A DNA stretch of 64,000 nt from Stegostoma tigrinum (lineage: Eukaryota): the NCBI RefSeq assembly GCF_030684315.1, contig NC_081391.1, positions 14,299,342 to 14,363,341 of the forward strand. The letters run 5' to 3'. Both the position numbers and the translations under genes were made by a program. Below are positions 437 through 48,814 of this stretch, in pieces. The notes below the pieces were generated by a model. That model did not search any database. It had not been told where the DNA came from and saw only the letters and a program-made list of their open reading frames with translations. Position 1 is the first letter of the stretch. Every line of letters starts with the position of its first letter.

Positions 437-3400
437 ATGGCCTCCCAGATCAGTCAGAACTATCACCAGGATTGTGAAGCTGCTGTCAACAAGCAGATTA
501 ATGTGGAGCTCACTGCCTCCTATCTCTATCAGTCTTTGGTGAGTGCTGTCCCTGTGGTGTTGAAGTTAAATCTGTTATGGTTAAGTCAACAGTTTTTCTT
601 GTTTGTAACTAACTTGGAACTACTGTAGATAGTGTTTTATATTTCCCTTCTATTTAAACACCAGGAGAAATCTAATGCTATTAGAAAAATGCGGTATGAC
701 ACTGATATACAGTAACTAGGCCCCTGTTGACTTTCAGTGACTGTCTGGTGGGTGAAGTGCTTTGAGAAATACATCTTGTAATTCACTGTCAGGATTGTGA
801 CTGGCAGTAACTGTCACTATCTCTGAAGATTATCATAACTTGACAGTATGTTAGAAAGAGGATAACGGAGTGTGGGGCTGGATGACCACAGCAGGACAAG
901 CAGCATCTCAGGAGCATAAAAGCTGATGTTTTGTGCCTGGACCCTTCATGCTGCTTGGCCTGCTGTGTTCATCCTGCCTGATGCTTTGTTTTCTTGGATT
1001 CTCCAGCTTTTGCTGTTCCCATTATTTGAGTCTTTTAGAAAGAAGCTGGGATAACCATTAGTTCATTAGCCTCCTGTTGTAATGTGTCCTGGTGTATCTG
1101 TTTTGTCTTGTGATGCATGTGAACAAACCAGGGTTATATTTCCTGTTGGAGAAAGGTGTCATAGTGACTGTCCAGAATAACCAAATCTGATTTGCCTCAG
1201 CCTTCAGGGTTGGGCTGTGACTCCCTACCTGTTTAAATAGGTTTCCAGTGAGGCCTGTTGGGCTTTTTGCTCTCCATGAGGTGGGTGTGACCCATTCTCT
1301 CTCAACCTACAGACAATTGATCTGCTGTAGTGTGATATATTGGAGACTCCTGGGTCTGCAGGAATGTGTTGAGCCAGTGAAGCAAGGCTTTTCCCATACC
1401 ACCTCTCCTGGTCTGAAACAAGCCCCCTTTCACCAGCTGGTGGTGTGCCTGTGCCCTTCCAAGGGGGAGAATATGTTTGGAAGGTGAGAGCTGCAGCGGA
1501 CCTAGTAGATAATGGACCCTGAAAGGAGGTGGTGAATGCAGTCCCCATGAAGTGGGTTGCTCTGTCCTGGATGGTGTCTGCTTCTTGCATGTTGTAGCTC
1601 CACTTCTCCAGACACATGGAGAATATTCATCACTCACTGGGCTTGTGCCTGTTGGAAGGAAGTCGTTTCCAATGACATGAGGATCAAGTCCCTGTAAGCC
1701 CACTTTGTGAGATGGGAACAGCTTTTCCTGCTGAACTAGGTGGGTTTTAATCACTGGCCAGTGTGCCTACTCAACAAGAATTGTGCTCATATAAAATCCT
1801 CACTGTTCTTCACATGTCACATCATGTAACAACCCAGTTAAATCACACTGTAATCCACCAAGGCAAATCGTCAAGAGCAACTTCTCACCAGGTTTCTTCC
1901 CTCAGAACAATCCTCATCTGCTTTATGAAGCAGCCTAAAGTGTTCACTGTTATTCCAGCTTGTTGTTCAAGTGTGAATGTCAGATTAGAATGAGTGCAAG
2001 GGGTGGGTCAGGTCTAGAATTTGACCTGTACAAATGGGTCAAATCAGGTTTTCCAGCTTCATGTTAACGAGTGACATGATCTGCAGAACAATAGTTCATC
2101 TCAAGGTCTCTCTGACCTTGCTTCAGTTTGTTTTAAGCAGTGATGTTTGTATGCAAGCTTCTGAATGTGAGTGTGCTACATAAATGGGTGTAGTAGCCTA
2201 TTGCAGTAACAACCGAATGGCTGTCACTGGGCAGGATTTCCTTTGCAGAATCTTGGTTCCACTTTTGCTCTTTCTCCCCCCATAATGCCAACAGCATCTC
2301 TTGCAGAGCTATCATCCAATCCGATTGATCTCCAGGTTGTAGAAGACTCGCTCCCTCCTGGCTATATTATTACAGCAGTGCCTAGTGTCTGTATGTTACT
2401 TTACCCCCAAAGGAGAAATGTAGTGTCGTGCAGCTACCCCACCCTGAGTCCATCCTGCACATCAACTCCTGGCCATTCCTCCAATTCTGTGACATCCATC
2501 AGTGGAAACATGAATTCAGCTTTTCTCAGCATACGCTGTGCCAGACCACCCCCCACCCTGAACAATTTGATAGTGCTTTCAAACCCAAACAGGGTATCTG
2601 CAGGAAGCTGGGTTTGTCTAGATTGACCCAGTTAACAGATCTGCCGGCAAATTGAACCACACTAGGTTCACAGGCCAATTTTGTGTAGCCGCACTTTGAC
2701 AGCTGGCCGAACCTTCAGTTTGCTTTTGAAGGATAAACCAGGTCTGCAGTTCTGAACTATATTCAGGCCCAGTGGTACATTTTAATGGGCTTTAACTTGT
2801 TCCCTCTCCCTTCCAGATGTCCTACTTTGACCGGGATGATGTTGCCCTCCCTCGTTTCTCCCGGTTCTTCAAAGATCAGTCCCAGCAGAAGCGGGAACAT
2901 GCAGAGAAGCTGCTGAAATTCCAGAATCAGCGTGGAGGCAGAGTCCTCCTCCAGGATGTGAAGGTTGGAGTTGGGAAGAGATGGTTGGGTAGGGTGAGGT
3001 TTCAAGTCAATGACCAGCATGTCTCACACTGAAAAGTGAGACATGCTACCATTTTGGCTTCCCAGTTTCTCCTGAAATACCAGAAATCCCACAAACAAGC
3101 CCTTTGGCCCACCATGTCTATGCTGACCCAACAAACACCCAACCACATTAATCCCATCAACCTGCACTTGGACTGCAGCCCACGATGAGCTGGCATTAAG
3201 TAGTTGTCCAGATGTTGCTGGAGTAGATGCCTTCACTCGGGTGTTGCATTTCACAAACCTACTTCTGTGTTTTAGGAGGAGTTGGAGGTGGTGGGTTTCC
3301 TCCGACCTGGAGCCTCACCTGCACCCCCCTCCAGTGTTTATCCTGTCCCTGTGATTGTGGTTCTGGTCACCACACTGGCCAGGTCAAAGATGGAAGACAA

Positions 3401-4847
3401 TGCTGCCTAGTTTCTGACCAGACTTGGGCCACCCAATAGGGACAGGCATCATGTAGGCCAACTTCACCCTCTGGTTGACCTTTGCTGATCCTTGAGAGGC
3501 CAAAGGTCTTGGGCACTTTGGTATCTCTGCTCCTTGCCATTAAAAACCCTGCTGTCCCTTGAATGAATCCAACAGTGATGTTTCTGATCCTGCTGCTCAG
3601 ACAGATATGAAACAAATGGCACAGGTGGGACTTCAACCTGGGCCCTTGTGTACCAGACACAGGGACAGTACCACAGCACCAAGAGCCCTTGGGATTAGGC
3701 TGTGCATGTCCTGATCTAAACTCCAGCAGATGGACACTGGTGTAATCCACACCAGGGTGCAAATTAAATCCTTATCCCCATGATGACATGGTCCTGGACT
3801 TCCTCATTCAGATCAAGGATAAATGGGGCAAGGTGAAAGCAGTTCCCAAGTAACTTTGATCTTCATGTGGACCTCAGGGATGGCACAGTGGCTCAGTGAT
3901 CAGCACTGCTGCCTCAGTGCCAGGGACCCAGGTTTGGTTCTGGCCTTGGGTGAATGATTAGAATTCACATTTCTCCCTGCATGGGTTTCCTCCCACAGTC
4001 CAATGATGTGCTGGTTAGGAGGATAGGTCATGGGAAGTGAGGGGTTGCAGAATTGGGTGGGAGTCTTTTCAGGGGGTATTGATGGTCTGAATGGCCTGCT
4101 CCCATGCTGCAGGGATTCTGTTTCTGAAGATTAACTGTACTTCTTTCTATCCTCAGAAGCCAGAGAGAGATGAGTGGGGTAACAGCCTGCAGGCAATGCA
4201 GGTTGCCCTGGATCTGGAGAAGAATGTGAACCAGAGTTTGCTGGATCTACACCAACTCGCCACAGCCCAGACTGACCCTCATGTAAGCTTCACCTCCTCC
4301 TCATTCTCATCACTGCTGGACCCTCAGGGCAACACTTCATTGGTTGGTCTTTGTGGTTTGGAAATTCACTGCTGAAACAGTTTTTGTCTGGATATGACAT
4401 TGCTATCACTGTATTCACTCCAGGTACAATGTCACAACTGCTCAGCAATGAGTGACATGGGGAATTTGGGTTATAATCTAGTGGGAGTGCTGAAGTGATA
4501 TTGGCCACTGAATTCCCATTCGGGGCCACTCGAGTTGAAATACTAGTGTCCTCACTGGCACAAATTCTCCAGCTATCGGCTGCACTTTGAGGACTGTCTG
4601 GAGTTAGTTATGGCTGAGTCTCTTGCAGTGGGAATTCTGAAATTGTCCTGTGCCATGTTAATGCACAAGTTGTCATGGTCCTCTGTTGCAGCTGTGTGAC
4701 TTCCTGGAGACCCACTATTTGGATGAGGAGGTGGAGATCATCAAGCAACTTGGGGACTACATCACCAACCTGAAGCGCCTGGGAGCCCCTGAGAATGGGA
4801 TGGGAGAGTACCTGTTTGACAGGCTCTCCCTGGAGGACAGCAGTTAG
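437..4847 (+). CDS. Ferritin heavy/middle-subunit-like gene, copy 1 (intact, 176 aa)
   Basis: Exons 437-538, 2817-2963, 4157-4282, 4692-4847 with GT-AG phase-0 introns. Translation [45 protein letters not shown]...[20 protein letters not shown].../KPERDEWGN...[14 protein letters not shown]...[14 protein letters not shown] matches vertebrate ferritin motifs and exon structure. AATAAA at 4975-4980. Confidence 0.96.
861..1026. mobile_element. Penelope-derived fold-back (inverted terminal fragment) repeat in copy 1 intron 1
   Basis: Inverted arms GCTGGATGA..CACAGCAGG..AAGCAGCA / TGCTGCTTGGCCTGCTGTGTTCATCC; same family as 38368-38510 and 44510-44656. Confidence 0.6.
3878..4125 (+). mobile_element. 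HE1-like tRNA-derived SINE ending just before exon 3 of copy 1
   Basis: GGCACAGTGGCTCAGTG A-box-like head, GGTTC B-box-like region, CR1-like tail GAATGGCCTG...GGATTCT; orthologous copies at about 14850-15105, 30848-30921 (remnant) and 40715-40966. Confidence 0.75.
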
Positions 4848-6453
4848 TGTGGCCTGGAGTACTGTCTGCTTGGTCTGAATGCATTCCCCACTTCACCCTG
4901 GACAACCTGTCTCCTTCCAGGGAGAAGGGACTTGGAGCAAAGAATGTAATGGCTGTACCAGCTGAATGAAAATGAATAAAATCATGTGTTGATCTTGCTT
5001 ATTGCCCATCATTCAGAGCCCTGTATAATTTTGGTAGTTATCCTGAGAGATTCAAGCATTAATTTTTCTGCAGTTTGATTTTGCTGATCAAATTACTAAT
5101 TGGGCTAAACATCTCATTGGTTCTATCCTCCATCCCACTCCGTCCTCTGTCAGACAGGGATTACAAGAGGAGGTTGCTCTGGCCTGTGAATCAATGATAT
5201 TCCTCCAAGCAGAACTTGAGGATATTGGGGTTTTGTCGGGTGGAACTTGCTCTTTGCAGTTGTGTTTTTATAAAATTACGTTTCTGGATGTGATGCATAC
5301 AATGGGAGGGGGGGAAAATCTTCCCTTTTACGGGAAGGGAGTTCTCCTGCTCTATACAAGGGAAGACGAGACACCCAGTCTCATGAATATCTGACAACCC
5401 TGTTTCCACGTTCACCTAGTCTGTCAAAGAGCTTTGCTTTTTCCCCCCTCCCCCACATGCAAAGATTTATTGCTGATGTGAAAGGAAAATGCCAATTTGA
5501 AGACAAAGCTAAGTGAGCTGGTACTGCAATAGTTGCTGTTACTGTAGGCCTAACCATGGAGGTGGTGGGATGAGCTCATTGGGCAACAATGCCATCTTTC
5601 TTGGGCAGGGGAGAATACAATGACAGTAAATTGTCCTGGCGCTGTTAGGATTCACCTATAGATGCAGCTTCAGGCAGAGCTAAGGGTCAAACCAGCCCTG
5701 GGACATGCACTATTGGTTGTGGGTTTTCCCCTTTTTTTTTTTCCTTCCACACTCACCCACTAGAGCCTCCCTGATCCTGCCATTAGCAATTGGGCAGGTT
5801 CGCCAGCTCATGCCTCCTTCGTCTGAGATAAATATGCTGGTCCTACTGGTCGCTTTGATTCAGTACCCACTGGAATCAGGGAGTCAATTCCCCCATCGGG
5901 CCATGTTTCCCAGAAGCAACCCAAAGTTGTCCTGATGTGGCTTATTCATTCCTGTTTTCTTTGCCTGTTTATAGGATTCACTCCAACAACCAGCCACTTC
6001 AGAATCAGCACATTGTCTCATTGCCACCTACACCAGGAGAGGAGTGGCCTGGGAGTAACTCAGCAACGCTCATCGTTACATGCTGCTGTTTGATTGGCTC
6101 TTGCTGCGAAAGCCAGCACTAAGTGCACTCAGCTGCTCCCTACGTTCCTCTGAGCTTCCCCCTGTTCTGCAGGTTGCCTTCTCCCAGTGATGGAGAACGA
6201 GCAGCGATTTCTGTTCAACTTGGGAATGGTGTGACTTAGGGGAGGTAACCTGGACCTGCATACCATCCTGTACGGCTGTTTACTTCAGCATTTGAGCTGT
6301 CAGTGACGTTCTGGGGATTACCACTGCGTTTTGCAGCTCCTGTGCAATACAGCCTATGTAGGGGGCATGGTTCTTATGTGACTCAACATATCTGTTACAT
6401 GACAGAAATCCTTTTTATTTTGACCAATCTTCATTCTTGGCGATGGTGTCCCT

Positions 6454-11092: not shown

Positions 11093-14000
11093 ATGGCCTC
11101 CCAGATCAGTCAAAACTATCACCAGGATTGTGAAGCTGCTGTCAACAAGCAGATTAATGTGGAGCTCACTGCCTCCTATCTCTATCAGTCTTTGGTGAGT
11201 GTTGTGTTTGTGAGGTTAAAATTCAATCTATTGTTCTGAAGTAAGCTATTTCCCTTGTAGATTGTGTTTCATATCTCTTACCTATTGAACACATCAGGAG
11301 AAATGTGATGTTATCATATCAGTGGGCTATGATCCTGATGTACAGTAATGGTGGACCCTGTAGGTCTTCAATGATCTCTGGAGGGTGAAGTGTTTTTTTG
11401 ACTTAATTCAAAATTCCCTGATAAAACTATGCCTGGCAGTAATTGTCACTCCCTCACTAAGATTATCAAAAAGTTATCTAATTTCTGAAGGAACTGGAAT
11501 AACATTGGCTAGTTACTGGCTTCTGTTTTTAACTTCTTGCTTTCTGTTTATTTAGTGATGCATGTCATTGAACAACATGCTGACTTAGTATAGTAGTAAG
11601 GCATTGTGGTAGCTCTTTCCAATTAACCAAATCTGATCTGACACAGCCTTCAGGGTTTGGGTGTGACTATTAGCAGCTCAAATAGGCCTTGTTGGGGGGC
11701 CTACTGGGCTTTGTGATCATTATTGAGATTGGTGTGGCCCTTCCCATAACACTTGACACGAAGTTGATCTGCTGTGGTGTGTGAAGTGAGATGCTGGTGC
11801 TTCTGGAATGTGCTGAGGGTATTGCCCCAGTGACAGTGATGAAATGGATTGTTCCCAGACCAACTATCCTGGTCCTGAAACACACTGGCCCCTTAGACCA
11901 GGTGGCAGAGTGCCTGTGCCTGTCTAAGGGGTAGAATGTGTTTGGAAGTTGTGTTGAAGTAACCTTGGTGAGTGCTGCAGGGGACCTGGTAGATAATGGA
12001 CCCTGAAAGGAGGTGGTGAATGCAGTCCCCCTGAAGTGGGCTGCTCTGTCCTGGATGGTGTCTGCTTCTTGCATGTTGTAGCTCCCCTTCTACAGACACA
12101 GGGGGAATATTCATCTCTCTCTGGGCTTGTGCCTATGGGAAGGAAGTTGCCCTGATGTAAGGATGGAGTCAGTATAACCTCCATTTGGGAGGTGGGAACA
12201 GCTTTTACTGGTGAACCCGTTGGGGTTTAATCACTGGCCAGTGTCCCAGCACAACAGGGCATTATGTACCAATCAATAAGTCCCCACTATTCTGTCTTCT
12301 GCAACTTTGAGCTACCCAATTAAACCATACTTTTTTGCCTCACTTTGTATTTGAGGGTTGAAGTAGCTTTTCCCACCAGGTTTCCAGCAGTGTGTTTACT
12401 GGTGACATTATCCATAGAACAAGAGTTGATCTAGAGATCAATTGTCTGTCTCCAACATTTCACTTTTCTTCAGTTAGTTCTGACAATTTGTTTTATCGGT
12501 GTGATTCTTATTTGCAAGCTTCTGGATGTGAGTGCACTCAATAAACAGGTGTGTAATAGTCTTCTGCGGCCACAATCCAAAGGCTGTAACTGGGCACGCT
12601 TTCCTCACCAGAATCTTGGTGCCACTTTCTCCTCCATGCTGCAGACAGCATGTCCGTAGCGCTAAAATATATGGTACATCTAATGCCATTAGTCTTGTGG
12701 TTGCACAACTTGCTTCCTCCTGATTGTCCTGTTCGAGTAGTGCTCAACATCTCTAAGAGATACCAAGGTCGGGAGATGTTTGAGCGCAGCAGGCCAAACA
12801 GGAAATCTGACACTATGGGCTAACATTTGTTTGCCACCTTCTCCCCAAAGGAGAAATGCAGTGCCTTGCAGCTGCCCCACCCTGAGTCCATTCTGCATAT
12901 CAGCTCCTGGCACTCGGTTAAAATGTTAGTCCATCCCTAGTTTCATTCAATCCTGATGAGTGTTCAACAAAGGAAACATGAATTCAAGTTTACTCTCTTA
13001 ATGCTGTGCCAGACCCCCTGAGCATTGTACTGTGTATCTTAAACCAAAACACATGGTATGCACATCCTCCCTGGAGGAAGCTGGGTTTGTTCAGATTGAT
13101 CCAGTTCAAGGATCGTCTGGCTAATTGGACAACACTAGGTTCATGACCAGTCATGTACCAGAACATAACAGCTCGTGGCATTCTGGATCAAACTGACAAT
13201 TCTAAACCTTCTATCAATTTCTGAGATCTACAACTGGCTCCAGTGGAGCATTTAATGGGATTTGACATGTTCTCTCTTCCAGATGTCCTATTTTGACCAG
13301 GATGATGTTGCCCTCCCCCATTTCTCCCAGTTCTTCAAAGATCAGTCCCAGGAGAAGCGGGAACATGCAGAAAAGCTGCTGAAATTCCAGAATCGGCGTG
13401 GAGGCCGAGTCCTCCTCCAGGATGTCAAGGTTGGGGTTTGGTTTGGGTGAGGGTGGGTGGTGACAGGTGAAAAATGTCAGCTCTCATGGTGAGGTTGCAA
13501 GTCAGTGACGAGGACTTCACATCCTGATGGGAAGTGACAAATATGTTCTTCTGTTTGGGTTCCCTGTGTCCTGACTCTCTGAATTCAACAAATCACAGAA
13601 ACAAGCCCTTTGCCCAACATGTCTATGCTGACCCACCAAATGACATTTTGCTGCACTTGGTCTACAGGCTACTCTGCCCTGGCATGAAGTACTTGGCTAG
13701 ATGTTGCTGGAGTGGCTGTCTCATCCATATTTCTACCATCCTCTGGTCGGGTTTGGGGCAGGGGTGAGGGAGGACACTTCCTCAAACCTGTGCCCTCTGG
13801 TCTTGGTGCCTGCCATGGCAAAGACCTCTGTCCTTCCATCTTCCAACTGCCTCAGCCTCTCAACCTCCAAGGAAAATCCCAGCTTCTGGAACCTGTCTTC
13901 AATGGATTTTCAGTCTTGAGGCAACATCCAGTATTCTTTACCTGCAGCCCTTCCAGTGCCATCCTGTCCCTCGGATTTGGGGTTCTGGTCACCACCCTGC

Positions 14001-15848
14001 ATTCTGTCCTTGGCCTGGCTCATGTTGCAAAGCTTGGTACAAGACTGAGCTCTGTACTGTGCCCCAACTGAAGGGGGCAAACATCATGTCAGCCACCTTC
14101 ACCAGCCTGTCTACCTTCACTGAGCCTTGAGCTATCTATGGTCTGGATGTTGTTATCTTAGTTCCTTTTATTCTAAAAGCTTTGCTGGCCCTTCAATGAA
14201 CTGAGTTGCAGTGATGTTTCTCATCCTGCTCGTGAGGAGGAGGACATGGCCTCGCGGTATTATTGATGAACTGCTAGTCAGACCCAGGCCATGTTATCGG
14301 GTCACATGTTTGAATCCTGCCACAGCAGGTGGAATTTTGACTCCACTTAAATAATCTGGAAATAAGAACTGAATGATGACCATGAATCCATTGATTGTCA
14401 GAAACTCATGGGGCTCAATATCCTTGTTTAGGGAAGTAAATTTTATCTCGTCTGAACTACATGTGACTCCACACCCACAGCAATGTGGTTGACTCTTTAT
14501 TGCCCTCTGCAGAATTAGGGATGGGCAATACATGTTGCCTGGTCAGCAAGCCCTCTCCAAATCCCACCAATAAAGGGGACATGGAATGCTGCCATGAGCA
14601 CAGGTGGGACTTCATCCTGGGCCTTGTGCTCCAGATGCAGGGATATTACCATGGTACCACAAAAGGCCTTGGGAATTAGGGTGTGACTGTCCTGCTTGGA
14701 ATTCCATCAGAGGGACACCAGTACAAACCACTTTGTGCCAATTTAATCCTTCTCCCCACAATGACCTGTTCCTGAGCTTCATGCTTCAGATCCAGGATAA
14801 ACAGCAAAGTGAAAGCAATTCAAATAACTGTTCCTCATCTGGGCTTCAGCGACAGAATAGTTGCTCAGTGGTTCGCACTGCTGCCTCAGTGCCAGGGACA
14901 CAGGTTGGATCTGGTCTCTGGTGGCTGTTTGGAACTTACACACACACCCTCCATGGGTTACCTCCACAGTCCAATGATCGCCAACTCGAACCTGGATATG
15001 GGAAATGCAGACCCACATGAAAAAGGTGAGTGGAATTGGGTGGGATACTACTGAGGTAGTAGTTGGTCTCAATGGGCTGAATGGCCTGCTGCAGGAATGC
15101 TGTTGCTGAAGCTTACCTGTCCTTCTTCTCTTCCAGAAGCCAGAGAGGGATGAGTGGGGTAACAGCCTGCAGGCAATGCAGGTTGCCCTGGATCTGGAGA
15201 AGAATGTGAACCAGAGTTTGCTGGATCTACACCAACTCGCCACAGCCCAGACTGACCCTCATGTAAGCTTCACCTCCTCCTCATTCTCATCACTGCTACA
15301 CCTGCAGGTCAACACCTCATTGGCTGTTCTTTGTGGTTTGGAAATTCACTGCTGTAACACTGTCTGTCTGACATTGGGCCTGAAGTGATCATGCTGAGGA
15401 TCTGTTCAGCAGTTGTTTCAAATGGGAATTTGGATTATTATCTGGAAGGAGCGTTGAACTGATACTGGCCACTGAATTCTCGTTTAGTATCATTCTGTCA
15501 AAATCCACTTCCACTCCATTTCACCAACAGCAAGATGGAGCAGCTGAAATCCTATTGTCCTCACTGGTACAAATTCTCCAGGTGCCGGGTTGAGTTTTCA
15601 AGGCTGTTGAGAGTGGGTATGGTGAAATAATTTGCAGTGGGAATTCTGAAGTTGTCTTTAATAGTGATTGCAATTTCTTTCTTCCACTGCAGCTGTGTGA
15701 CTTCCTAGAGAATCACTATTTGGATGAGGAGGTGGAGATCATCAAGCAACTCGGGGACTACATCACCAACCTGAAGCGCCTGGGAGCCCCTGAGAATGGG
15801 ATGGGAGAGTACCTGTTTGACAGGCTCTTCCTGGAGGACAGCAGTTAG
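11093..15848 (+). CDS. Ferritin heavy/middle-subunit-like gene, copy 2 (intact, 176 aa)
   Basis: Exons 11093-11194, 13283-13429, 15137-15262, 15693-15848; canonical splice sites, open frame; AATAAA 15975-15980. Confidence 0.95.
12470..12915 (-). mobile_element. Old degraded Tx1/L1-like LINE fragment in intron 1 (copies 1, 2, 4, 5)
   Basis: Minus-strand translation ...ACP...[10 protein letters not shown]... resembles the C-terminal zinc knuckle of L1/Tx1 ORF2; heavily frameshifted. Confidence 0.4.
14240..14575 (+). mobile_element. Second tRNA-derived shark SINE family in copy 2 intron 2
   Basis: B-box-like GTTTGAATCC, body ATGATGACCATGAATCCATTG...ACATGTGACTCCA, A-rich end; a truncated paralog lies at 39127-39327. 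Confidence 0.6.
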
Positions 15849-19673: not shown

Positions 19674-22600
19674 ATGGCCTCCCAGATTAGTCAGAACTAT
19701 CACCAGGATTGTGAAGCTGCTGTCAACAAGCAGATTAATGTGGAGCTCACTGCCTCCTATCTCTATCAGTCTTTGGTGAGTGTTGCCTCTCAGGGGTTTA
19801 ACATTTAAACTATCATGTCAAAGTGACTGGTTTCCCTTGTTTCTAACTAACGTGATATTCTTGTTCACTGACTGTAATTGTTCTTAACTGAACTGCAATT
19901 CAGGATGAATGTGATGTTTCCATAGCAATGGGCTATGGGACTGATGCCCCACTTGGCCTGCAGTGACACATTGAGGTGAAGTGTTCTTGGTGTTCTCAGA
20001 CTCCCTTAGACTGTTGTGACTGGCAGTAACTGTTACTCCCTCATTAGGGTTGTTGAAAGTGAAGGTTTGTTAGGCCTGTTCCTGGGGTTGCATGATCTAG
20101 TGTATTGGTGCTACTGGAATGTCTGGAGATTTTTCACTCTATAACAGTGAAGAAATGGAGATTCTGCTCTCATGCTGGCCCTATTTGAAACAGGCCTCTT
20201 TTGTCAGTTGGTGCTGTGCCTGTGACCACCTGAAAAATAGTAGCATTTGTAGGTGAGAGAGATAATATTAAGTGCAGATGCAGGACAATCTGTTTATAAC
20301 AAGGTGTTGAGCGAGAATAACAGCAGGCCAAGTGGCACCTTAGGAGCAGGAAAGCTCCTGTTTCAGGACTCAAGGGTCTAGGCCCGAAGCATTAGCTTTC
20401 CTGCACTGAAGATGCCACTTGGCTGGCTGTGTTGTTCCAGCTCTAAACCTTGTTATCTTGGATTTATGTATGCAAGGTGTTATTCTTTTTTTCAGTGAGG
20501 GGAAAACATCATGCCTTGCGATTGCCTCACGTTTGTTTTTTATTCTCCAGTAGGATTGACTGTAGAACAGTACAGGCCCTTCAGCCCTCGCCGTTGTGCT
20601 GACCTGTCATACCGATCTGAAGCCCATCTAACCTACACTATTCCATATGTGTCTAATGATGACTTAAATGTGCCTCAAGTTGGCGAATCTACAACCGTTG
20701 CAGGCAAAGCATTCCATTCCCTTCCTACTCTGAGTAAAGAAACTACCTTTTGACATCTGTCCTATATCTTCCAACCCTCAGTTTAAAGGTAGGCCCCCTC
20801 GTGCTTGCCGTCTTCATCCTAGGAAGAAGCCTTTCCCTATCTAACCCTCTGAATATTTTGTCTCAATTAAGTCTCCTCTCAACGTTTGTCTCTCTGTTGA
20901 AAACAGCCTCAAGCCCCTCTGCCTTTCCTTGTAAGATGTTCCCTCCATACCAGGCAACATCCCAGTCAATCTCCTCTGCACCCTTTCCAAAGCTTCCACA
21001 TCCTCCTTATAATGCAGTGACCAGAACTGTACGCAATACTCAGTGTGGCCACAGAGTTTTGTACAGCTGCAGCATAACCTCTTGGTTCCAGAAAACAATC
21101 CCTCTGTTAATAAAAGCCAAAACACAATGCCTTAACAGCCCTGTCAACCTGGGTGGCAACTTTCAAGGACCTGTGTACATGGACACCAAGATCTCTTTGC
21201 TCATCAACACCACCAAGAATCTTACCATTAGCCCAGTACTTTGCCTTCTGGTTACTCCAACAAAGTGCATCACCTCACACTTGGCTGCATTAAACTCCAT
21301 TTGCCACCTCTCAGCCCAGCTCTGCAGCTTATCTATGTCTCTCTGCAACCTACAGCATCCTTCGTCATTATCTGCAACTCCACCTTAGTGTCGTCTGCAA
21401 ATTTATTAACCCCTCCTTCTACGCCCTCATCCAGGTCATTTATAAAAATGACAAACAGCAGTAGACCCAGCACTGACCCTTGCGGTACACGACTAGTAAC
21501 TGGTCTCCAGGATGAACACTTCGCATCAACTACCACCCTCTGACTTCTTTCAGCAAGCCAATTTTCATTCCAAACTGCTATATCTCCCACAATTCCATTC
21601 CACTACAGTTTGTACAGTAGTCTATTGTGGGGAATGTTATCGAACGCCTTGCTGAAATTCATATACACCACATCAACCGGTTTCCTCTCATCTACTTGTT
21701 TGGTCACCTTCTCAAAGATTGAGGGTCTGAGTGGCCTAATCCTGTTTGTTCTGATAACAGTTTTTGTTTCTTTGGTTTTTTAACTTTCTTTAAAAATGAA
21801 CCAGTGTCTTCAGGATTGCCTCTAATTATTTTGAACTGAATAGAAGCTGTCACTTTATCACAAGCTCCAACTTCATGTTCACCATGGAACCAAGTTTAAA
21901 TCTATATCTGCATGACTGACCAACACTCACTTCTCTCCCGTCCCCATATACCGGAGGTTTAACACCTTTATTGAATAGTCAGCCTGATCGGGAAGGCTTG
22001 CTTCTTCTCACCACTGAGACTGAACTGTGGCCAGTGATGTGTTTAATGGGCTTTTGGCTGTTTTCTGTTCCAGATGTCCTACTTTGACCAGGATGATGTT
22101 GCCCTCTCCCATTTCTCCCGGTTCTTCAAACATCAGTCCCAGGAGAAGCAGGAACATGCAGAGAAGCTGCTGAAATTCCAGAATCAGCGTGGAGGCCGGG
22201 TCCTCCTCCAGGATGTGAAGGTTGGAGTTGGGAATATATGGCTGCTCTTGTCATGTGGCTTCAAGTCATCAGTGGCAGGCTGTTTGCCTCCTCTCAGGAG
22301 AGTGAAGAGTTCTTTCAGTTTGGTTTCTAAGTTTCATCTCCTTGAAGTCATGCAGTGTATGGGAAAAGCCACTTGCCCCCCCATAAACAGAACTACACTA
22401 ATCTGACTTGCTTGCACTTGGTCCACAGATGACTATACCCTGGCATGAAGTACATGTCCAGATACTGCTGGAGTTGCTATCTCCACTGCCATCTCTTCCC
22501 CTCCCCACCCAGACCACGGTTCAACTCTTATCTTGATCAGCCTCCTTTTTGGGAATGTGGTTTCCTATAATTGCCCCTCTATAACCTGCTTACTCCTCAA

Positions 22601-23985
22601 ACCTGTGCTCTCTGGTCTGTCTTCCTCATGGCCCACATTCTCCCCATCTCCTGTCCCAACTTCTCTCTGCTAACTGCCTCAGCCTGTTTGTCCTCCAGCC
22701 AATCCAACACCTCAATGGATTTTCCACCTGAGGGACCTTCCTGTCCTTCTGATAGTGGTCCTGTTCACAACACCATTGCTTCTTTGACCTGGCCAAAATT
22801 TGAGTGGAAGAAGAAATGGCTGGCCTTGGGGTGTGGCTTCCATTCATCAGTAACAGGATGATGACATCCTGAAGGCAGGTGCAGGAAGTGAAGTGCTTCT
22901 GTCTTTCACCCATCATTCGGTCTACATCTTGTGCAAGAACTATACTGTCTAAATTCTGCGTGATAATCTCAAACTCATTGCTTTGTTCCTGGCTTCGGTG
23001 AAATCAAACATACACTCAGGTTGAAAGTTTAAGGTCTGCTGCTAATAACGTGGCTGGACTCTTTTAGTTTTAAAGCAGTTCTGTTTGTACCAAGTACAAT
23101 CAGACAAGATCCATGTGTCTGTGCGCTCCTACCGTTAGACATGCCGACAATGATTGCTTTCCCTTTACATGAAGGGTTAAGGTTCAATTGTTGAACAAGG
23201 GTGCTGCATGTAATGGGGAATAGTGAGGTTTGTCCTGGAGCTTAGCTGTCCTTCTTTCCATCCTCAGAAGCCAGAGAGGGATGAGTGGGGTAACAGCCTG
23301 CAGGCAATGCAGGTTGCCCTGGATCTGGAGAAGAATGTGAACCAGAGTTTGCTGGATCTACACCAACTCGCCACTGCCCAGACTGACCCTCATGTAAGCT
23401 TCACCTCTTCATTGTCATCACTGCTACACCCTCAGGGCAACACTTCATTGATTGGTCTTTGTGGTTTGGAAATTCACTGCTGTAACACTTTGCCTGGCTG
23501 ACATTGGACCTGAAGTGATCATGCTGAGGATCTGTTCAGCGGTTATAAAAATCAAGTCAGATGAGAATTTGGATAATTATGTCGAAGGAGTGTTGAACTG
23601 ATACTGGCCACTGAATTCTCGTTTAGTATCATTGTCCATCACAATCCACCTCCACTCCATTTCACAAACAGCAAGATGGAGCAGCTGAAATCCTATTCTC
23701 CTCACTGGCAAATTCTGCAGGTGCTGGCTAGTTTTTTCAGGGCTGTTGAAAGTGGGTATGGTGAAATGTTTTGCAGTGGGAATTCTGAAGTTGTCTTTAA
23801 TAGTGATCGCAATTTCTCATCTGTTGCAGCTGTGTGACTTTTTGGAGACTCACTATTTGGATGAGGAGGTGGAGATCATCAAGCAACTTGGGGACTACAT
23901 CACCAACCTGAAGCGCCTGGGAGCCCCTGAGAATGGGATGGGAGAGTACCTGTTTGACAGGCTCTCCCTGGAGGACAGCAGTTAG
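19674..23985 (+). CDS. Ferritin heavy/middle-subunit-like gene, copy 3 (intact, 176 aa)
   Basis: Exons 19674-19775, 22074-22220, 23268-23393, 23830-23985; canonical splice sites, open frame; AATAAA 24112-24117. Confidence 0.95.
20296..20464. mobile_element. Penelope-derived fold-back repeat in copy 3 intron 1
   Basis: Inverted arms ATAACAAGGT...CAGCAGGCCAAGTGGCA / TGCCACTTGGCTGGCTG...ACCTTGTTAT with a central AAGGGTCTAGGCCCGAA remnant. Confidence 0.6.
20560..21716 (-). mobile_element. CR1-type LINE, 5'-truncated, in copy 3 intron 1
   Basis: RT motifs [29 protein letters not shown]; flanked by GATTGA at 20554-20559 and 21717-21722; empty site in copies 6 and 7. Confidence 0.92.
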
Positions 23986-27647: not shown

Positions 27648-30600
27648 ATGGCCTTCCCAGATCAGTCAGAACTATCACCAGGATTGTGAAGCTGCTGTCA
27701 ACAAGCAGATTAATGTGGAGCTCACTGCCTCCTATCTCTATCAGTCTTTGGTGAGTGTTGTTTGTGAGGTTAAAATTCAATCTATTATTCTGAAGTGAGC
27801 TATTTCCCTTGTTTCTAACTAACTTGACCCCCTTGTAGATTGCGTTTCATATCTCTTACCTATTGAACACATCAGGAGGAATGTCATGTTATCATATCAG
27901 TGGGCTATGGTCCTGATGTACAATAATGGTGGACCCTGTCACTCTTCAATGATCTCTGGAGGGTCAAGTATTTTTTTTTCTGACTGACCTAATTCAAAAT
28001 TCCCTGATAAGGTTGTGCCTGGCAGTAATTGTCACTAGGATTATCAAAAAGTTCATCTAATTTCTGAAGGAACTGGAATAACATTGGCTAGTTACTGGCT
28101 TCTGTTTTTAATTTCTTGCTTTCTGTTTATTTAGTGATGCATGTCATTGAACAACATGCTGACTTGGTATAGTAGTAAGGCATTATGGTAGCTCTTTCCA
28201 ATTAACCAAATCTGATCTGACGTAGCCTTCAGGGTTTGGCTGTGACTGGTAGCAGCTCAAATAGGCCTTTTTGGAGGCCTACTGGGCTTTGTCTTCGTTT
28301 ATTGAGATGGGTGTGGCTCTTCCCTTCAAACTCAACAGGAAATTGATCTGCTGTGGTGTGTGAAGTGAGACGCTGGTGCTTCTGGAATGTGCTGAAGGTA
28401 TTGCCTCAGTGATAGTGATGAAATGGATTGTTCCCAGACCATCTATCCTGGCCCTGAAACACACTGGCCCCATAGGCCAGGTGGCAGTGTGCTTGTGCCC
28501 TTCTAAGGGGTAGACTGTTTGGAAGGTGTGTTTGAAGTAACCTTGGTGAGTGCTGCAGGGGACCTAGTAGATAATGGACCCTGAAAGGAGGTGGTGAATG
28601 CAGTCCCCATGAAGTGGGCTGCTCTGTCCTGGGTGGTGTCTGCTTCTTGCATGTTGTAGCTCCACCTCTCTAGACACATGGAGAATATTCATCTCTCTCT
28701 GGGCTTGTGCCTGTTGGAAGGAAGCTGCCTCGATGTAAGGATGGAGTCTATATAACCTCCATTTGGGAGGTGGGAACAGCTTTAACTGGTGAACCACTTG
28801 GGGTTTAATCACTGGCCAGTGTCCCAGCACAACAGGGAATTATGTACCAATCAATAAGTCTCCACTATTCTGCCTTCTGCAACTTAGAACTACCCAATTA
28901 AACCATACTCTTTGGCCTCACATTGTATTTGAGGGTTGAAGTAACTTTTCCCATCAGGATTCCTTGCTTGTAGCAGCTCTCATGCATCAGCTTCTGAAGA
29001 AACAGCCAATGGACGACGTACTTTTATTTCAACTGAAGCTGTAGCCCTCCAATGTTGAATTGTGAATGTCAGTTTCAGACATGAGTAATTATGGGTGGGG
29101 AAAATTAAGCATTTTGCATGTTCAACTAGGTGAAATGAACGTTTCCAGCAGTGTTTACTGATGACATTATCCATAGAACAACAGTTGATCTAGAGATCAA
29201 TTGTCTGTCTCCAACATTTGACTTTTTTCTTCAGTTTGTTCTTACCATTTGTTTTCAGTGTGATGCTTGTTTGCAAGCTTCTGGATGTGAGTGCATTCAA
29301 ACTAGTGTGTAATAGCCTTCTGTGACAACAATCCAAAGGCTGTTACTAGGTAGGCTTTCCTCACCAGAATCTTGGTGCCACTTTCTCCTCCATGCTGCAG
29401 ACAGCATGTCCTGTAGCGTTGAAATACATGGTAGATCCAACCTCATTAATCCTGAGGTTGCAGAACTTCCTTCCTCCTGGTTGTACTGTTAGAGTAGTGA
29501 TCAACATCAGTATAAGAGATACCAAGGTCAGGAGATGGATGAACACAGCAGGCCAAACAGGAAATCTGACACTATGGGCTAACATTTGTTTGCCACCTTA
29601 GCCCCAAAGGAGAATTGCAGTGCCTCGCAGCTGCCCCACCCAGAGTCCATTCTGCACACCATCTCCTGGCACTTGGTTAAAACCTAACTCATCACTAATT
29701 TCATTCAATCCTGATGAGTGTTCGACAGAGGAAACACAAATTCAATTTTTCTCTCTGCTGTGCCAGACTCCCTGAGCATTGCACTGTGTATCTTAAACCA
29801 AAACACATGGTATGCACATCCTCCCTGGAGGAAGCTGGGTTTGTTGAGATTGATCCAGTTCAAGGATCGTCTGGCTAATTGGACAACACTAGGTTCATGA
29901 CCACAGTAACGTACCAAACATAACAGCTAGTGGCATTCTGGAGCCAACTTTTAATTCTAAACCAGGCATCAATTTGAGATCTTCAATTGGGCCCAGTGGT
30001 GCCTTTAATGGGATTTGAAATGTTCTCTCTTCCAGATGTCCTATTTTGACCAGGATGATGTTGCCCTCCCCCATGTCTCCCAGTTCTTCAAAGATCAGTC
30101 CCAGGAGAAGCAAGAACATGCAGAGAAGCTGCTGAAATTCCAGAATCAGCGTCGAGGCCGAGTCCTCCTCCAGGAAGTGAAGGTTGGAGTTGAGAAGGGA
30201 AGGCTTGGTGGGATGGGGTGGAGAAAAGTTAGCTGCTCTTGTGGTGAGGTTTCAAGTCAGTGACAAGAATTAACATACTGATAACTAAGTTGTTCCTCTG
30301 TTTGGGTTCCTGCTTTTTCATTTTGAAATGCCAGAAATCTCTCAAGCCCTTTGGCTGCCCATGTCTATGCTGACCCAACAAACAACAAACCACACTAACC
30401 CCACTCATCTGCACTTAATCTACTGCCCACTATGCCCTGCCCTAGTTGTCCAGATGTTGCTTAAATTTTGGAGTAGCTGGCTGCTCCACTTTTTTTTCTT
30501 CCCCCTGATATGCTGCATTTCACATTCCCACCATCCTCCTCTAGGGTGATAAGAGGGGAGCAGAGTGGCTTCCTCCAACCTGTGCTCTCTGGTCTTGATG

Positions 30601-31615
30601 TCTGCCATGGGGAAGACATAATCCCCATCTGCTGTGCACTCCCCAGTCTTCCATGCTTCCATCAGATAACTGTCTTCCCAACCACATCATTTCCTCAAAG
30701 GAAAATCCCAGCCTATCCAACCTCTGATCAATGAATTTTCCATCTTGGGGCAACATCCTGGTGACCCTCCTTGGTGATTCTGTCCTTTTGACCTGGCCAG
30801 TGTCAGTCACAGGTGAAATACAATATTGCCAAGTTTGTGACAAGACTTGGGTGGGAGACTTTTCAGATGTTATTGGGAGGGCTGAATGGCCTGTTCCTAT
30901 GCTTGCAGGAATTCTGATTCTGAAGCTTACCTGTCCTTCTTTCTCTCCAGAAGCCAGAGAGGGATGAGTGGGGTAACAGCCTGCAGGCAATGCAGGTTGC
31001 CCTGGATCTGGAGAAGAATGTGAACCAGAGTTTGCTGGATCTACACCAAGTCGCCACTGCCCAGACTGACCCTCATGTAAGCTTCACCACCTCATTCTCA
31101 TCACTGCTACACCCTCAGGGCAACACTTCATTGGTTGGTCTGTGTGGGTTGGAAATTCACTGATTTACACTTCTTTTTGTACAGATCACATGGATCACTT
31201 CAGATCCATACTGATTACAAAGATCATTGCTGAGCAGTTGAATCAAAGTATGTATTTTAACTTGTAAACCTGTGGGAGGACTGAGGTGATATTGGTCATT
31301 GAACTCTCATTCAGGACCATTGCAGTGGAATGACTTTTATCCATCACATTAACTCCGCTCTAGTTAACAATCTCCCGAGTATGCATGTTTTTCAGTGGGA
31401 ATTGTAAAATTGTCAGGGATAGCGTTAATGCACCCAGTTGTCCTATTCCTCTGTTGCAGCTGTGTGACTTCCTGGAGACTCACTATTTGGATGAGGAGGT
31501 GGAGATCATCAAGCAACTTGGGGACTACATCACCAACCTGAAGCGCCTGGGAGCCCCTGAGAATGGGATGGGAGAGTACCTGTTTGACAGGCTCTCCCTG
31601 GAGGACAGCAGTTAG
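27648..31615 (+). pseudogene. Ferritin-like copy 4, frameshifted in exon 1
   Basis: Exons 27648-27750, 30036-30182, 30951-31076, 31460-31615. ATGGCCTTCCCAG versus ATGGCCTCCCAG in most other copies (+1 T) gives TGA at 27687-27689. Remaining exons are open. Could be an assembly indel. Confidence 0.85.
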
Positions 31616-35587: not shown

Positions 35588-38500
35588 ATGGCCTCCCAGA
35601 TTAGTCAAAACTATCACCAGGATTGTGAAGCTGCTGTCAACAAGCAGATTAATGTGGAGCTCGCTGCCTCCTATCTCTATCAGTCTTTGGTGAGTGTTGT
35701 GTTTGTGAGGTTAAAATTCAATCTATTATTCTGAAGTGAGCGATTTCCCTTGTTTCTAACCAACTTGGCCCCCTTGTAGATTGTGTTTCATATCTCTTAC
35801 CTATTGAACACATCAGGAGAAATCTGATGTTATCATATCAGTGGGCTATGATCCTGATGTACAATAATGGTGGACCCTGTCAGTCTTCAATGATCTCTGG
35901 AGGATGAAGCGTTTTTTATTTTTTGACTTAGTTCAAAATTCCCTGATAAGGTTATGCCTGGCAGTAATTGTCACTCCCTCACTAGGATTATCAAAAAGTT
36001 CATCTAATTTCTGAAGGAACTGGAATAACCATTGGCTAGTTACTGGCTTCTGTTTTTAATTTCTTGTTTTCTGTTTGTTTAGTGATGCATGTCATTGAAC
36101 AACATGCTGACTTGGTATAGTAGTAAGGCATTATGGTAGCTCTTTCCAATTAACCAAATCTGATCTGACACAGCCTCCAGGGTTTGGGTGTGACTGTTAG
36201 CAGCTCAAATAGGCCGTGTCGGAGGCCTACTGGGCTTTGTGATCATTATTGAGATGGGTGTGGCCCTTCCCTTCACACTTGACACGAAGCTGATCTGCTG
36301 TGGTGTGTGAAGTGAGACGCTGGTGCTTCTGGAATGTGCTGAAGGTATTGACTCAGTGATAGTGATGAAATGGATTGTTCCCAGACCATCTATCCTGGCC
36401 TTGAAACACACTGGCCCCTTAGACCAGGTGGCAGTGTGCCTGTGCCCTTCCAAGGGGTAGAATGTGCTTGGAAGGTGTGTTGAAGTAACCTTGGTGAGTG
36501 CTGCAGGGGACCTGGTTGGTAATGGACCCTGAAAGGAGGTGGTGAATGCAGTCCCCATGAAGTGGGCTGCTCTGTCCTCAATGGTGTCTGCTTCTTGCAT
36601 GTTGTAGCTCCCCTTCTACAGACACATGGAGAATATTCATCTCTCTCTGGGCTTGTGCCTATTGGAAGGAAGTTGCCTCGATGTAAGGATGGAGTCAGTA
36701 TAACATCCATTTGGGAGGTGGGAACAGCTTTTACTGGTGAACCAGGTGGGGTTTAATCACTGGCCAGTGTCCCAGCACAACCGGGAATTATGTACCAATT
36801 AATAAATCCCCACTATTCTGTCTTTTGCAACTTGGAACTACCCAATTAAACCATACTTTTTTTTGCCTCACTTTGTATTTGAGGGTCGAAGTAGATTTTC
36901 CCACCAGGATTCCTCGCTTACAACATCTCTCATGCATCAGCTTCTGAAGAAACAGCCAATAGATGACTCACGTCTCCTTCAACTGAAGCTGTAGCCCTCC
37001 AATGTTGAATTGTGAATGTCAGTTTTAGACATGAGTGATTATGGGCGGGAAAATTACAGTATTTTGCATGTTCAACTAAGCTAAATGAATGTTTCCAGCA
37101 GTGTGTTTACTGATGACATTATCCATAGAACAACAGTTGATCTAGAGTTCTATTGTCTGTCTCCAACATTTGACTTTTCTTCAGTTTGTTCTTACAATTT
37201 GTTTTATCAGTGTGATGCTTGTTTGCAAGCTTCTGGATGTGAGTGCACTCAATAAACAGGTGTGTAATAGCCTTCTGCAGCAACAATCCAAAGGCTGTTA
37301 CTGGGCAGGCTTTCCTCACAAGAATCTTGGTGCCACTTTCTCCTCTATGCTGCAGACAGCATGTCCTGTAGCGCTAAAATATATGGTACATCTAACGCCA
37401 TTAATCCTGAGGTTGCAGAACTTGTTTCCTCCTGGTTGTACTGTTAGAGTAGTGCTCAACATCTCTATTAAGAGATACCAAGGTCGGTAAATGGATGAAC
37501 ACAGCAGGCCAAACCGGAAATCTGACACTATGGGCTAACATTTGTTTGCCACCTTAGCCCCAAAGGAGAAATGCAGTGCCTTGCAGCTGCCCCACCCTGA
37601 GTCCATTCTGCATACCAGCTCCTGGCACTTGGTTAAAACCTTACTCCATCACTAATTTCATTCAATCCTGATGAGTGTTTGACAGAGGAAACATGAATTC
37701 CATGTTTCTCTCTCAATGCTGTGCCAGACCCCCTGAGGATTGCACTACGTATCTTAAACCAAACCACATGGTATGCGCATCCTCCCTGGAGGAAGCTGGG
37801 TTTGTTCAGATTGAGCCAGTTAAAGGATCATCTGGCGAATTGGACAACACTGGGTTCATGACCACAGTAACGTACCAAACATAACAGCTCGTGGCATTCT
37901 GGAGCAAACTGTCAATTCTAAACCAGGCATCAATTTGAGATGTACAATTGGGCCTAGTGGTGCACTTAATGGGATTTGAAATGTTCTCTCTTCCAGATGT
38001 CCTATTTTGACCGGGATGACGTTGCCCTCCCCCATTTCTCCCAGTTCTTCAAAGATCAGTCCCTGGAGAAGCGGGAACATGCAGAGGAGCTGCTGAAATT
38101 CCAGAATCAGCGTGGAGGCCGAGTCCTCCTCCAGGATGTCAAGGTTGGAGTTTGGTTTGGGTGAGGGTGGGTGGTGACAGGTGAAAAATGGCAGCTCTCA
38201 TGGTGAGGTTTCAAGTCAGTGACGAGGGCTTCACATCCTGATGGGAAGTGACCAATATGTTCTTCTATTTGGGTCCCCTGTGTCCTGACTCTGAATGCAA
38301 TAAATCACAGAAACAAGCCCTTTGCCCACCGTGTCTATGCTGAATCACCAAATGACACTTTGCTGCAGTGATAATGGGAGCTGCCGATGCTGGAGAATCC
38401 AAGATAATAAAATGTGAGGCTGGATGAATACAGCAGGCCCAGCAGCTTTTGTGCTCCTGAGATGCTGCTGGGCCTGCTGTATTCATCCAGCCTCACATTT

Positions 38501-41500: not shown

Positions 41501-41649
41501 ACTTCCTGGAGACTCACTATTTGGATGAGGAGGTGGAGATCATCAAGCAACTTGGGGACTACATCACCAACCTGAAGCGCCTGGGAGCCCCTGAGAATGG
41601 GATGGGAGAGTACCTGTTTGACAGGCTCTCCCTGGAGGACAGCAGTTAG
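35588..41649 (+). pseudogene. Ferritin-like copy 5 with duplicated exon 2 and premature TGA in exon 4
   Basis: Exon 1 35588-35689, exon 2a 37997-38143, exon 2b 39492-39638, exon 3 40998-41123, exon 4 41494-41649. Exon 4 begins CTG TGA (41497-41499) instead of CTG TGT. Confidence 0.85.
38368..38510. mobile_element. Young Penelope-derived fold-back insertion
   Basis: Perfect 49-bp inverted arms 38398-38446 and 38464-38512; 14-bp direct repeat GACACTTTGCTGCA at 38354-38367 and 38511-38524; empty site in copy 2 near 13642-13655. Confidence 0.8.
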
Positions 41650-44700: not shown

Positions 44701-45104
44701 CTGCTGTCAACAAGCAGATTAACGTGGAGCTCACTGCCTCCTATCTCTATCAGTCTTTGGTGAGTGCCCTCTGAGGATAAAATGTAATCTGTTATGTTGG
44801 AGTGAGCTGTTTTCCTTGTTTCTAATTAGCACTAGTTGGCCTGTTGTGATTTATTGAAGTGAAGTGTTCTTAGTGTTTATTTTTTTTCTAAGTCCCTGAG
44901 ACTATTTGTTTGACTGGCAGTAACTGTCACTTCCTCAAGATTGTCAAAACTGAGAATTTGTTGGGTTTTTAAGGGTGCCCTGGTGGCTCAATGGTTGACA
45001 TGACTCAACAGTGCTGGATACCTGGGTTTGACTTCAACCTTAGGGAAATTGTACAAACTCAACAAATTCTCCCTGTGTCTTTCTTCCCACTGTCCCAAAA
45101 TGCT
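44701..45104 (+). pseudogene. Orphan 3' half of ferritin exon 1 plus start of copy-6-type intron 1
   Basis: 44701-44759 encodes ...[19 protein letters not shown] followed by GTGAGT; the whole stretch is near-identical to about 46309-46713; no ATG or promoter. Confidence 0.9.
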
Positions 45105-46162: not shown

Positions 46163-46579
46163 AGTCCCAAGGCTGTCATCTTTTATGGTGTAGTTGATAC
46201 TGCTCTAAATTTGTTGTTTTGGTTAGTAAGCCTAATAAAACAGGCTACTTGCTACTCCTCACAAGATGGCCTCTCAGATTTGTCAGAACTATCACCAGGA
46301 TTGTGAAGCTGCTGTCAACAAGCAGATTAATGTAGAGCTCACTGCCTCCTATCTCTATCAGTCTTTGGTGAGTGCCCTCTGAGGATAAAATGTAATCTGT
46401 TATGTTGGAGTGAACTGTTTTCCTTGTTTCTAATTAGCACTAGTTGGCCTGTTATGATATATTGAAGTGAAGTGTTCCTAGTGTTTATTTTTTTCTAAGT
46501 CCCTGAGACTATTTGTTTGACTGGCAGTAACTGTCACTTCCTCAAGATTGTCAAAACTAAGAATTTGTTGGGTTTTTAA

Positions 46580-46870
46580 GGGTGCCCTGGTGGCTCAATG
46601 GTTGACATGGCTCAACAGTGCTGGATACCTGGGTTTGACTCCAACCTTAGGGAAACTGTACAAACTCAACAAATTCTCCCTGTGTCTGTCTTCCCACTGC
46701 CCCAAGGTGCCTGGGTTATGGAGCTTGGGCAATTCACTATGCCCATAGTGTCTAAGGATATGAAATGCCTCATAACTGATGTGGTAGGGGTATGGATTTA
46801 GGTGGGATGCTCTTCATTTGGTTGGTGTAGAATTAATGGGCTGAATGGTGTACTTTAACATATGTTCTAT
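46580..46870 (+). mobile_element. Old HE1-like SINE in intron 1 of copy 6 (paralog about 55712-56028 in copy 7)
   Basis: GGTGGCTCAATGGTT head, CCTGGGTTTGACTCC B-box-like region, GGGCTGAATGG tail. Confidence 0.55.
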
Positions 46871-48496: not shown

Positions 48497-48782
48497 GAGA
48501 TCAAAGTGCAAAGCTGGATAAACACAGCAGGCCAAGCAGCATCTTGGGAGCTCCTGAAATACTGCTTGGCCTGCTGTGTTCATCCAGCTTTGCACTTTGA
48601 CCTTGGATTCTCCAGCATCTGCAGTTCCCACAATCTGTGATCACAAGGATGTGATGGTGTTGTGACCAGGACCACTGTTTTTATATGAGGTGGTGGGTTC
48701 AGAAAAAGGGCCTAGGCCTGAAATGTCAGCATTGTTGCTCAGCTTGCTGTGTTCATCCAGCTCTAAACCTTTATTATCTCAT
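48497..48782. mobile_element. Penelope-derived fold-back fragments in copy 6 intron 2
   Basis: Inverted arms TCAAAGTGCAAAGCTGGAT...GCAGGCCAAGCAG / CTGCTTGGCCTGCTG...CTTTGCACTTTGA plus a second fragment at about 48700-48782. Confidence 0.6.
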
Positions 48783-48814
48783 TCCAAGCTGAATATTTGT
48801 CTACTACCATCCTC

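Follow-up and report, generated by a model that had tools for sequence, protein, structure and literature searches.

In the di-iron site of ferritin, E62 bridges both irons and Q141 is part of the second site, and combining E62K with H65G in the human heavy (H) chain abolishes ferroxidase activity, as described in the excerpts consulted of two papers (PMC6929972, PMC4029007). Here we describe a 64-kb stretch of the genome of the shark Stegostoma tigrinum (the window; C50:14299342-14363341, C50 being its contig), which lies within a tandem array of ferritin genes encoding a subunit with K62 and E141. The array shares K62, E141, E107, a hydrophobic residue at position 144 and four exons with the light (L) chain gene FTL, including the 'light chain, oocyte isoform' of amphibians and reptiles and the lungfish L chain. 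Fish are usually described with H and middle (M) ferritins only, an inactive L chain being a tetrapod feature. K62 and E107 form a salt bridge in the L chain, whose nucleation patch lies on helix B at positions 57, 60, 61, 64 and 67; a stabilizing salt bridge in the L chain was reportedly noted by Santambrogio in 1992. Mammalian FTL has a 5' iron-responsive element (IRE).

Published ferritin expansions in sharks consist, like this array, of a large tandem cluster on one chromosome. As far as the consulted portions of the two sources go, Sahm 2024 counts 155 'FTL' and 179 'FTH1' copies (bioRxiv 10.1101/2024.09.09.611499), Yang 2026 counts 59 FTH1b copies, ties them to ferroptosis and infers the functional similarity of FTH1a and FTH1b from their fold (PMC13214024), and the clusters are old and common to sharks (bioRxiv 10.1101/2024.09.09.611499, PMC13214024). 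The text consulted of both leaves the active-site residues unexamined and does not tell K62-type copies apart; the word 'ferroxidase' occurs 0 times in the main text and supplement 1 of Yang 2026 (PMC13214024). Lee 2014 takes teleost M to be the orthologue of tetrapod L, with sharks unmentioned in the part consulted (PMC4117605).

An array of K62 ferritin genes and its expression

Contig C50 was read without gaps from 12.96 to 14.42 Mb. The array spans C50:12,987,143-14,403,990 (1.42 Mb) in head-to-tail order, with 167-169 matches per exon, a median gene spacing of 8.5 kb and about 165 tandem genes, bearing out the amplification proposed in the original prediction, which had been made from the window alone. 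That prediction had also read the L-like substitutions E62K and Q141E in every copy, and both hold array-wide: K62 is present in 168 of 169 exon 2 copies (the remaining one is deleted, and none has E62), E141 in 165 of 167 exon 4 copies (two are gapped, and none has Q141) and I144 in 167/167. Window residue n corresponds to human n+3, a numbering checked on the human H chain and frog M in the PDB, which places the Lys at ligand position 62 as had been claimed. The other ligands were said to be kept, and this is largely so, with E27 in 167/169 copies (two are not covered), Y34 in 159/169, H65 in 150/169 and E107 in 166/167. At the helix B patch positions the array has D/H57, Q60, E61 and E64, with E67 in 84 of 85 distinct intact coding sequences. 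The channel residues D131 and E134, also claimed to be kept, are invariant across these 85; the claim fails for the broken copy 6 of the window, which has D131N.

Seven ferritin genes of four exons each lie in the window together with a stray piece of an exon, all on the + strand; copies 1, 2, 3 and 7 are intact (4/7) and copies 4, 5 and 6 are broken. Its features are as follows, with the evidence in brackets (X10 is a sequencing run considered below).

437..538, + strand: copy 1 exon 1, 34 codons, carrying E27 and Y34 (splice joint 538/2817 in run X10)
2817..2963, + strand: copy 1 exon 2, with D57, Q60, Q61, K62, E64 and H65 (sequence, X10 joints)
2889..2891, + strand: copy 1 K62 codon AAG, in place of the bridging Glu of the di-iron site (sequence, array counts, numbering check)
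4157..4282, + strand: copy 1 exon 3, E107 codon at 4217-4219 (X10 joints)
4692..4847, + strand: copy 1 exon 4, coding part including the stop, with D131, E134, E140, E141 and I144 (X10 joints)
4728..4730, + strand: copy 1 E141 codon GAG, Q in H and M chains (sequence, array counts)
4975..4980, + strand: copy 1 AATAAA, likely its poly(A) signal (sequence; X10 contigs extend to ~5015)
11093..15848, + strand: copy 2, four exons, intact (sequence)
19674..23985, + strand: copy 3, four exons, intact (sequence)
27648..31615, + strand: copy 4, exon 1 frameshift from a 1-base insertion (sequence)
35588..41649, + strand: copy 5, exon 2 doubled (37997, 39492), stop in exon 4 (sequence)
44701..44759, + strand: stray piece, the 3' part of exon 1 (sequence)
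46266..51436, + strand: copy 6, exons 2, 3 and 4 with deletions, plus D131N (sequence)
55332..58962, + strand: copy 7, four exons, intact (sequence)

The motif S-x-[E/Q]-K-[R/Q]-E-H, predicted for every exon 2, is found in all eight exon 2 copies of the window, and LDEEVEII, predicted for exon 4, in all seven exon 4 copies, counting the LDEVEIV of copy 6, which reflects a 3-base deletion. Copy 1 additionally has E61Q and differs at four residues from the stored Stegostoma protein P0004; exon 4 is 100% identical to S. tigrinum proteins labelled 'ferritin, middle/heavy subunit-like'. The original prediction was right to take the source for a shark.

Matches across the array form 169 gene groups, 164 of them with all four exons correctly ordered. 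At least 94 of the 164 are intact, this being the number that pass a strict test (a 531-base frame with GT/AG splice sites), and they represent 85 distinct coding sequences with a mean identity of 96.6%. The array genes are under purifying but relaxed selection: the ratio of nonsynonymous to synonymous polymorphism (pN/pS), calculated from distinct variants counted against the commonest codon, is 0.40 in intact genes and 0.60 in broken ones. At C50:13.68-14.04 Mb identical coding sequences repeat at 127,027-127,028 bp and at other long offsets; these repeats are either a recent segmental duplication or an assembly duplication. The 300 bases upstream of exon 1 contain a CCAAT box in 153/167 copies and a CAGCTG E-box in 112/167, and TATAA lies ~100 bases ahead of the ATG in about 92 array copies, all three counts being without a shuffle control; E-boxes of the CAGCTG kind occur in oocyte promoters.

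Four of the 14 listed sequencing runs were compared with the window; none is recorded as RNA, and X10 carries no tissue label. Across window positions 200-5200, X10 displays GT..AG joints at all three introns of copy 1 and exon depths of 0.3-4.6 million; most intron bins stand at 0-100, with two that contain repeats standing higher, contig depth being no measure of expression or copy number. Given these joints and the contrast of exon with intron depth, X10 is RNA rich in K-array transcripts; X11 and X12 cover the introns as DNA would, and X1 covers little. One loose X10 end matches 17 loci of the second ferritin array described below plus a single locus on C17, with nothing matched in the K array, which hints weakly at expression of the two arrays in the same sample. 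Artefact or misalignment as the source of K62 and E141 is ruled out by the PDB numbering, the array-wide counts and the X10 splice joints, and an array consisting purely of pseudogenes by the 94 intact genes and the spliced RNA. In the Greenland shark, the largest ferritin cluster is expressed ovary-specifically, according to the part of the source seen (bioRxiv 10.1101/2024.09.09.611499). By analogy, expression of the K62 array is quite probably ovarian.

Predicted function of the K62 subunit

An AlphaFold model of the array protein has a normal ferritin bundle (predicted local distance difference test, pLDDT, 87.6), with template modelling (TM) scores of 0.93-0.95 to frog M. Judged from its sequence, the array subunit is very probably ferroxidase-poor and would work like a light chain. 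The predicted subunit would fold and assemble normally and store iron while oxidizing it poorly, with K62 pairing with E107 and shutting the di-iron site, and with the lumen acids D/H57, E61, E64 and E67 helping to nucleate the core. K62 subunits may share cages with the active-site-intact subunits of the second array, probably in oocytes; from what is known of related ferritins, such mixed cages are fairly likely. Poor ferroxidase activity, ovarian expression and mixed cages taken jointly are somewhat favoured. The best explanation of the locus, to which we lean modestly, is that an amplified shark K62 subfamily supplies an L-type, ferroxidase-poor subunit, probably ovarian, beside an active partner.

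Several observations weigh against this explanation. H65, E27, Y34 and E107 are retained in most copies, so that metal may still be bound at one of the iron sites, and the mutant papers document, in the excerpts consulted, only the double mutant E62K/H65G and not E62K alone (PMC6929972, PMC4029007). With Q at position 60 and often H at position 57, the array has a weaker nucleation patch than the mammalian L chain. The ovary result comes from another species, and the expressed subfamily is not stated in the part of the source seen (bioRxiv 10.1101/2024.09.09.611499). Co-assembly is assumed from knowledge of the ferritin family. Within the array, 70 of the 164 four-exon genes (43%) fail the intactness test and the intact copies show no variation in 99 of 176 columns, and fixation of K62 inside the array is for these reasons weak evidence when taken alone, since it could reflect descent and homogenization.

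The retained ligands would also suit a remodelled site at which E141 replaces the lost E62 and useful ferroxidase activity is kept, and E141 is indeed seen only with K62: at positions 62/141, 238 stored proteins of 150-200 residues comprise 85 KE, 27 KQ, 117 EQ and 0 EE, although these proteins are non-independent and the E141 counts amount to two origins. We consider such a site very unlikely, as K62 occurs with Q141 in four shark orders, K62 proteins of Heptranchias have R or C at position 65, and the inactive L chains share the K62 and E141 state. The array might otherwise have arisen for the most part passively through unequal crossing-over, or be a source of bulk iron-poor protein, its iron handling unselected. 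The share of apparently broken four-exon genes, the near-identical blocks recurring at ~127 kb and a pN/pS of merely 0.40 fit this proposal, which is nevertheless unlikely in view of the invariant D131 and E134 in the 85 intact coding sequences, the maintenance of the subfamily in 10 genera and the richness of X10 in these transcripts.

Distribution in sharks and origin of K62

The K62 subfamily was found in 10 shark genera, with K62 in every member. Stegostoma, Rhincodon, Chiloscyllium and Hemiscyllium combine K62 with E141 and I144, and Heterodontus, Scyliorhinus, Mustelus, Carcharodon, Cetorhinus and Heptranchias combine K62 with Q141; the E141 genera are the carpet sharks. Among the matches listed (the best 120 of 266, 4799 and 1892), Pristiophorus, rays, chimaera, coelacanth and ray-finned fishes contributed no member of the subfamily. 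The best tree requires one change at position 62 and two at position 141, and E62K and Q141E are one base change each. Because Q141E is confined within sharks to carpet sharks and position 141 changes twice, Q141E is convergent with tetrapod L. The best explanation of this distribution is that K62 dates to the common ancestor of living sharks or earlier and that E141 arose later, in carpet sharks. Four K62 ferritins of Heptranchias (P0236-P0238, P0023) also lack H65, having C or R there, a further step to the L state. Some database labels are apparently wrong (P0239, P0242, P0119, P0137 set): white-shark-type K62 ferritins stand under Salmonella, and lizard-type L chains under giant panda and nematode.

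Protein trees rooted on lamprey were built from rows hand-picked from about 300 stored proteins, omitting chimeric models and most near-copies. The K clade (support 100/97) and the L clade (100/100) are firm, and the base of the tree is unsupported. With columns 62 and 141 removed, L was sister to K in 497 (LG+G) and 735 (C20 model) of 1000 bootstraps on a 41-row set and in 738 and 746 of 1000 on another set, the K+L branch having bootstrap/SH-aLRT (Shimodaira-Hasegawa-like approximate likelihood ratio test) support of 50/50 and 74/7. The second array, either alone or joined by the T gene, was the sister of K in 33-224 of 1000 bootstraps, and tetrapod M in 3-4. The approximately unbiased (AU) test rejected none of the alternatives (K+second array, p 0.265; K+tetrapod M, 0.18; K+IRE gene, 0.15; K+fish M, 0.07). 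All 10 L chains in the tree set carry K62, and a lungfish light-chain protein (XP_043939310.1) with E27, K62 and E141 groups within L. The original prediction had placed the array on an M-type scaffold; this stands as overall similarity, at ~70% identity to bullfrog M, and the trees do not favour close kinship to M, although the AU test leaves it unrejected. It had further called the gene an intermediate between the H/M and L states, a description that is not upheld, as lungfish and several amphibian L chains likewise keep E27 or H65.

To the choice between ancestry and convergence left by that prediction, the answer differs by residue: Q141E is convergent, and E62K, which is shark-wide, tilts without firm support to a common origin with the L chain. 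The K subfamily may be the shark orthologue of lungfish and tetrapod L, with a single E62K before the split of sharks from bony fish and a loss in ray-finned fishes, a proposal we rate as evenly balanced. It accords with the sister relationship of L in 50-75% of bootstraps (two taxon sets, two models, columns 62/141 removed), with L37, S52 and L173, which K and L share besides K62, with the K62/E141 L chain of lungfish, and with the presence on the contig of RUVBL2, BAX, a neurotrophin and a GFO/IDH/MocA gene, which neighbour FTL in human. The K+L node, however, was never starred (50/50; 74/7), an earlier 46-row tree with columns 27, 60, 61, 65 and 144 dropped as well did not join K and L, the AU p on 32 rows was 0.465, both stems are long, C9, K22 and T125 tie K to the other shark array, the synteny is common to all C50 ferritins, others of which lie nearer RUVBL2, and no K62 protein came from rays, chimaera, coelacanth or ray-finned fishes in the lists of best 120 matches. 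A shark-specific duplicate of an M/L-locus gene that reached the L state independently has a little short of an even chance. The single-base changes, the convergence of Q141E, the E62K of one Heptranchias protein (P0060) on the other shark scaffold, an AU test that leaves a grouping of K and the other shark arrays unrejected (p 0.265) and the E62K of a sponge ferritin, as given in the part of that paper seen (PMC8395497), are in keeping with such a duplicate, against which the second array was sister to K in just 33-224 of 1000 bootstraps. Membership of the K subfamily in FTL, for which we see about even chances, is not claimed.

A broader reading can be put forward only tentatively: the L chain may be as old as jawed vertebrates and have begun as an egg ferritin, with sharks keeping an IRE-free orthologue, amplified more than 100-fold, beside an equally amplified active partner as an egg-specific heavy/light system. 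On this broader reading the carpet sharks, in repeating Q141E on their own, show that Q141E follows E62K. The array subunit may thus be the most ancient relative of the light chain known so far. A shark-wide K62 subfamily means either that the origin of the L chain moves back to the first jawed vertebrates or that L evolution has been repeated naturally, and the K62/Q141 and K62/E141 stages are both alive today and easy to assay. The published expansion also reads differently, since ~165 copies here, annotated heavy or middle, are without one of the core ligands, a point of consequence for the idea, resting on copy counts, that links ferroptosis and longevity.

Other ferritins of the genome and comparison with known systems

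The second ferritin array lies at C50:19.95-21.55 Mb and on C216, with at least 150 exon 2 matches on both strands; in a sample of 22 loci, E62 is present in 18/18 motifs and Q141/M144 in 21/21, and this array with its intact di-iron site is the likely active partner. At its end, two single ferritin genes stand face to face at C50:21.59-21.61 Mb (L213:6671-L214:6906 / L215:2265-4459), one resembling Heptranchias P0117 without an IRE match and the other carrying an IRE and grouping loosely with fish M and H chains. On another contig, C20 (18.05 Mb), lies FTH1, which has E62 and Q141 and carries an IRE. FTH1 and the single C50 gene served as positive controls for the Rfam IRE search, which gave no match in the window, in two further K-array loci (L033-L034) or in four second-array loci; in the rest of the K array, covered by pattern and folding only, loop-like matches occurred in 12/167 upstream regions, with a fold unlike the controls. 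Lacking an IRE, the array would have its output set by gene dose and transcription, not by iron level.

RUVBL2 (18.55 Mb), the neurotrophin (19.46), the GFO/IDH/MocA gene (26.38) and BAX (26.43) lie on C50, so that the K array, like three other ferritin classes, shares a contig with BAX and RUVBL2, which are 4-12 Mb away from it; C20 and C33 carry the glycogen synthases. By the human gene order this would be the chromosome segment of FTL, which puts all C50 ferritins in the M/L lineage with none singled out. In alligator (P0139) and Leptobrachium (P0218), gene models fuse exon 1 of M type with exons 2-4 of L type, and the accessions of the lungfish M, M and L proteins run nearly consecutively; M and L probably lie in tandem in these three. 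The array flanks (127 kb left, 118 kb right) contain long open frames that are repeat-like, five of which were scanned against Pfam with no match; an open frame of 580 codons (L209:1310-3049), 80 kb to the right of the array, likewise has no Pfam match. Exon-spanning ferritin matches with stops on C2, C5, C11, C13, C17 and C43 (L083-L088, L091) are likely processed pseudogenes. Yang 2026 describes, in the part consulted, a separate tetrapod-like FTL beside FTH1 in the species analysed there (PMC13214024). None was found here, the best 150 of 444 axolotl L exon candidates all lying on C50 or C216, although a divergent gene could escape this search.

The shark ferritin expansion is already published. 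For the active-site loss we came across no earlier account: our literature search, which is thin on subscription journals, returned no paper that describes K62 or E141 in shark ferritins. Among known systems, the human H mutant E62K/H65G has E62K in common with the array, but is engineered and has H65 removed as well. The sponge ferritin HdF2 also has E62K with a predicted loss of iron binding at the site, and atypical ferritins mostly lack an IRE; it differs in its independent origin, in having lost more ligands (E27Q, E61S, H65S, E134A) and in its minor expression, as far as the portion of that paper seen goes (PMC8395497). The H chain FTH1 has a complete di-iron site, an IRE and a place in the H clade, none of which applies to the K array. 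Bullfrog M (PDB 1mfr) is the best PDB match to the array protein in sequence (about 70% identity) and fold, but has the E62 and Q141 of a complete di-iron site, both absent from the array, and M is not its sister in the trees. The array may occupy the chromosome neighbourhood of FTL (BAX, RUVBL2), and the L chains of our alignment A2 are 62-68% identical to the K array, which differs from FTL in its ~165 tandem copies, the lack of an IRE match, Q60 and a separately gained E141. The mammalian-type loss of ligands 27 and 65 is absent from the K array and is not universal among L chains either, as lungfish and some frog L chains keep E27, and axolotl and Xenopus L keep H65. The K62 subfamily is a real, shark-wide variant of a known family, and its subunit most likely works like an L chain.

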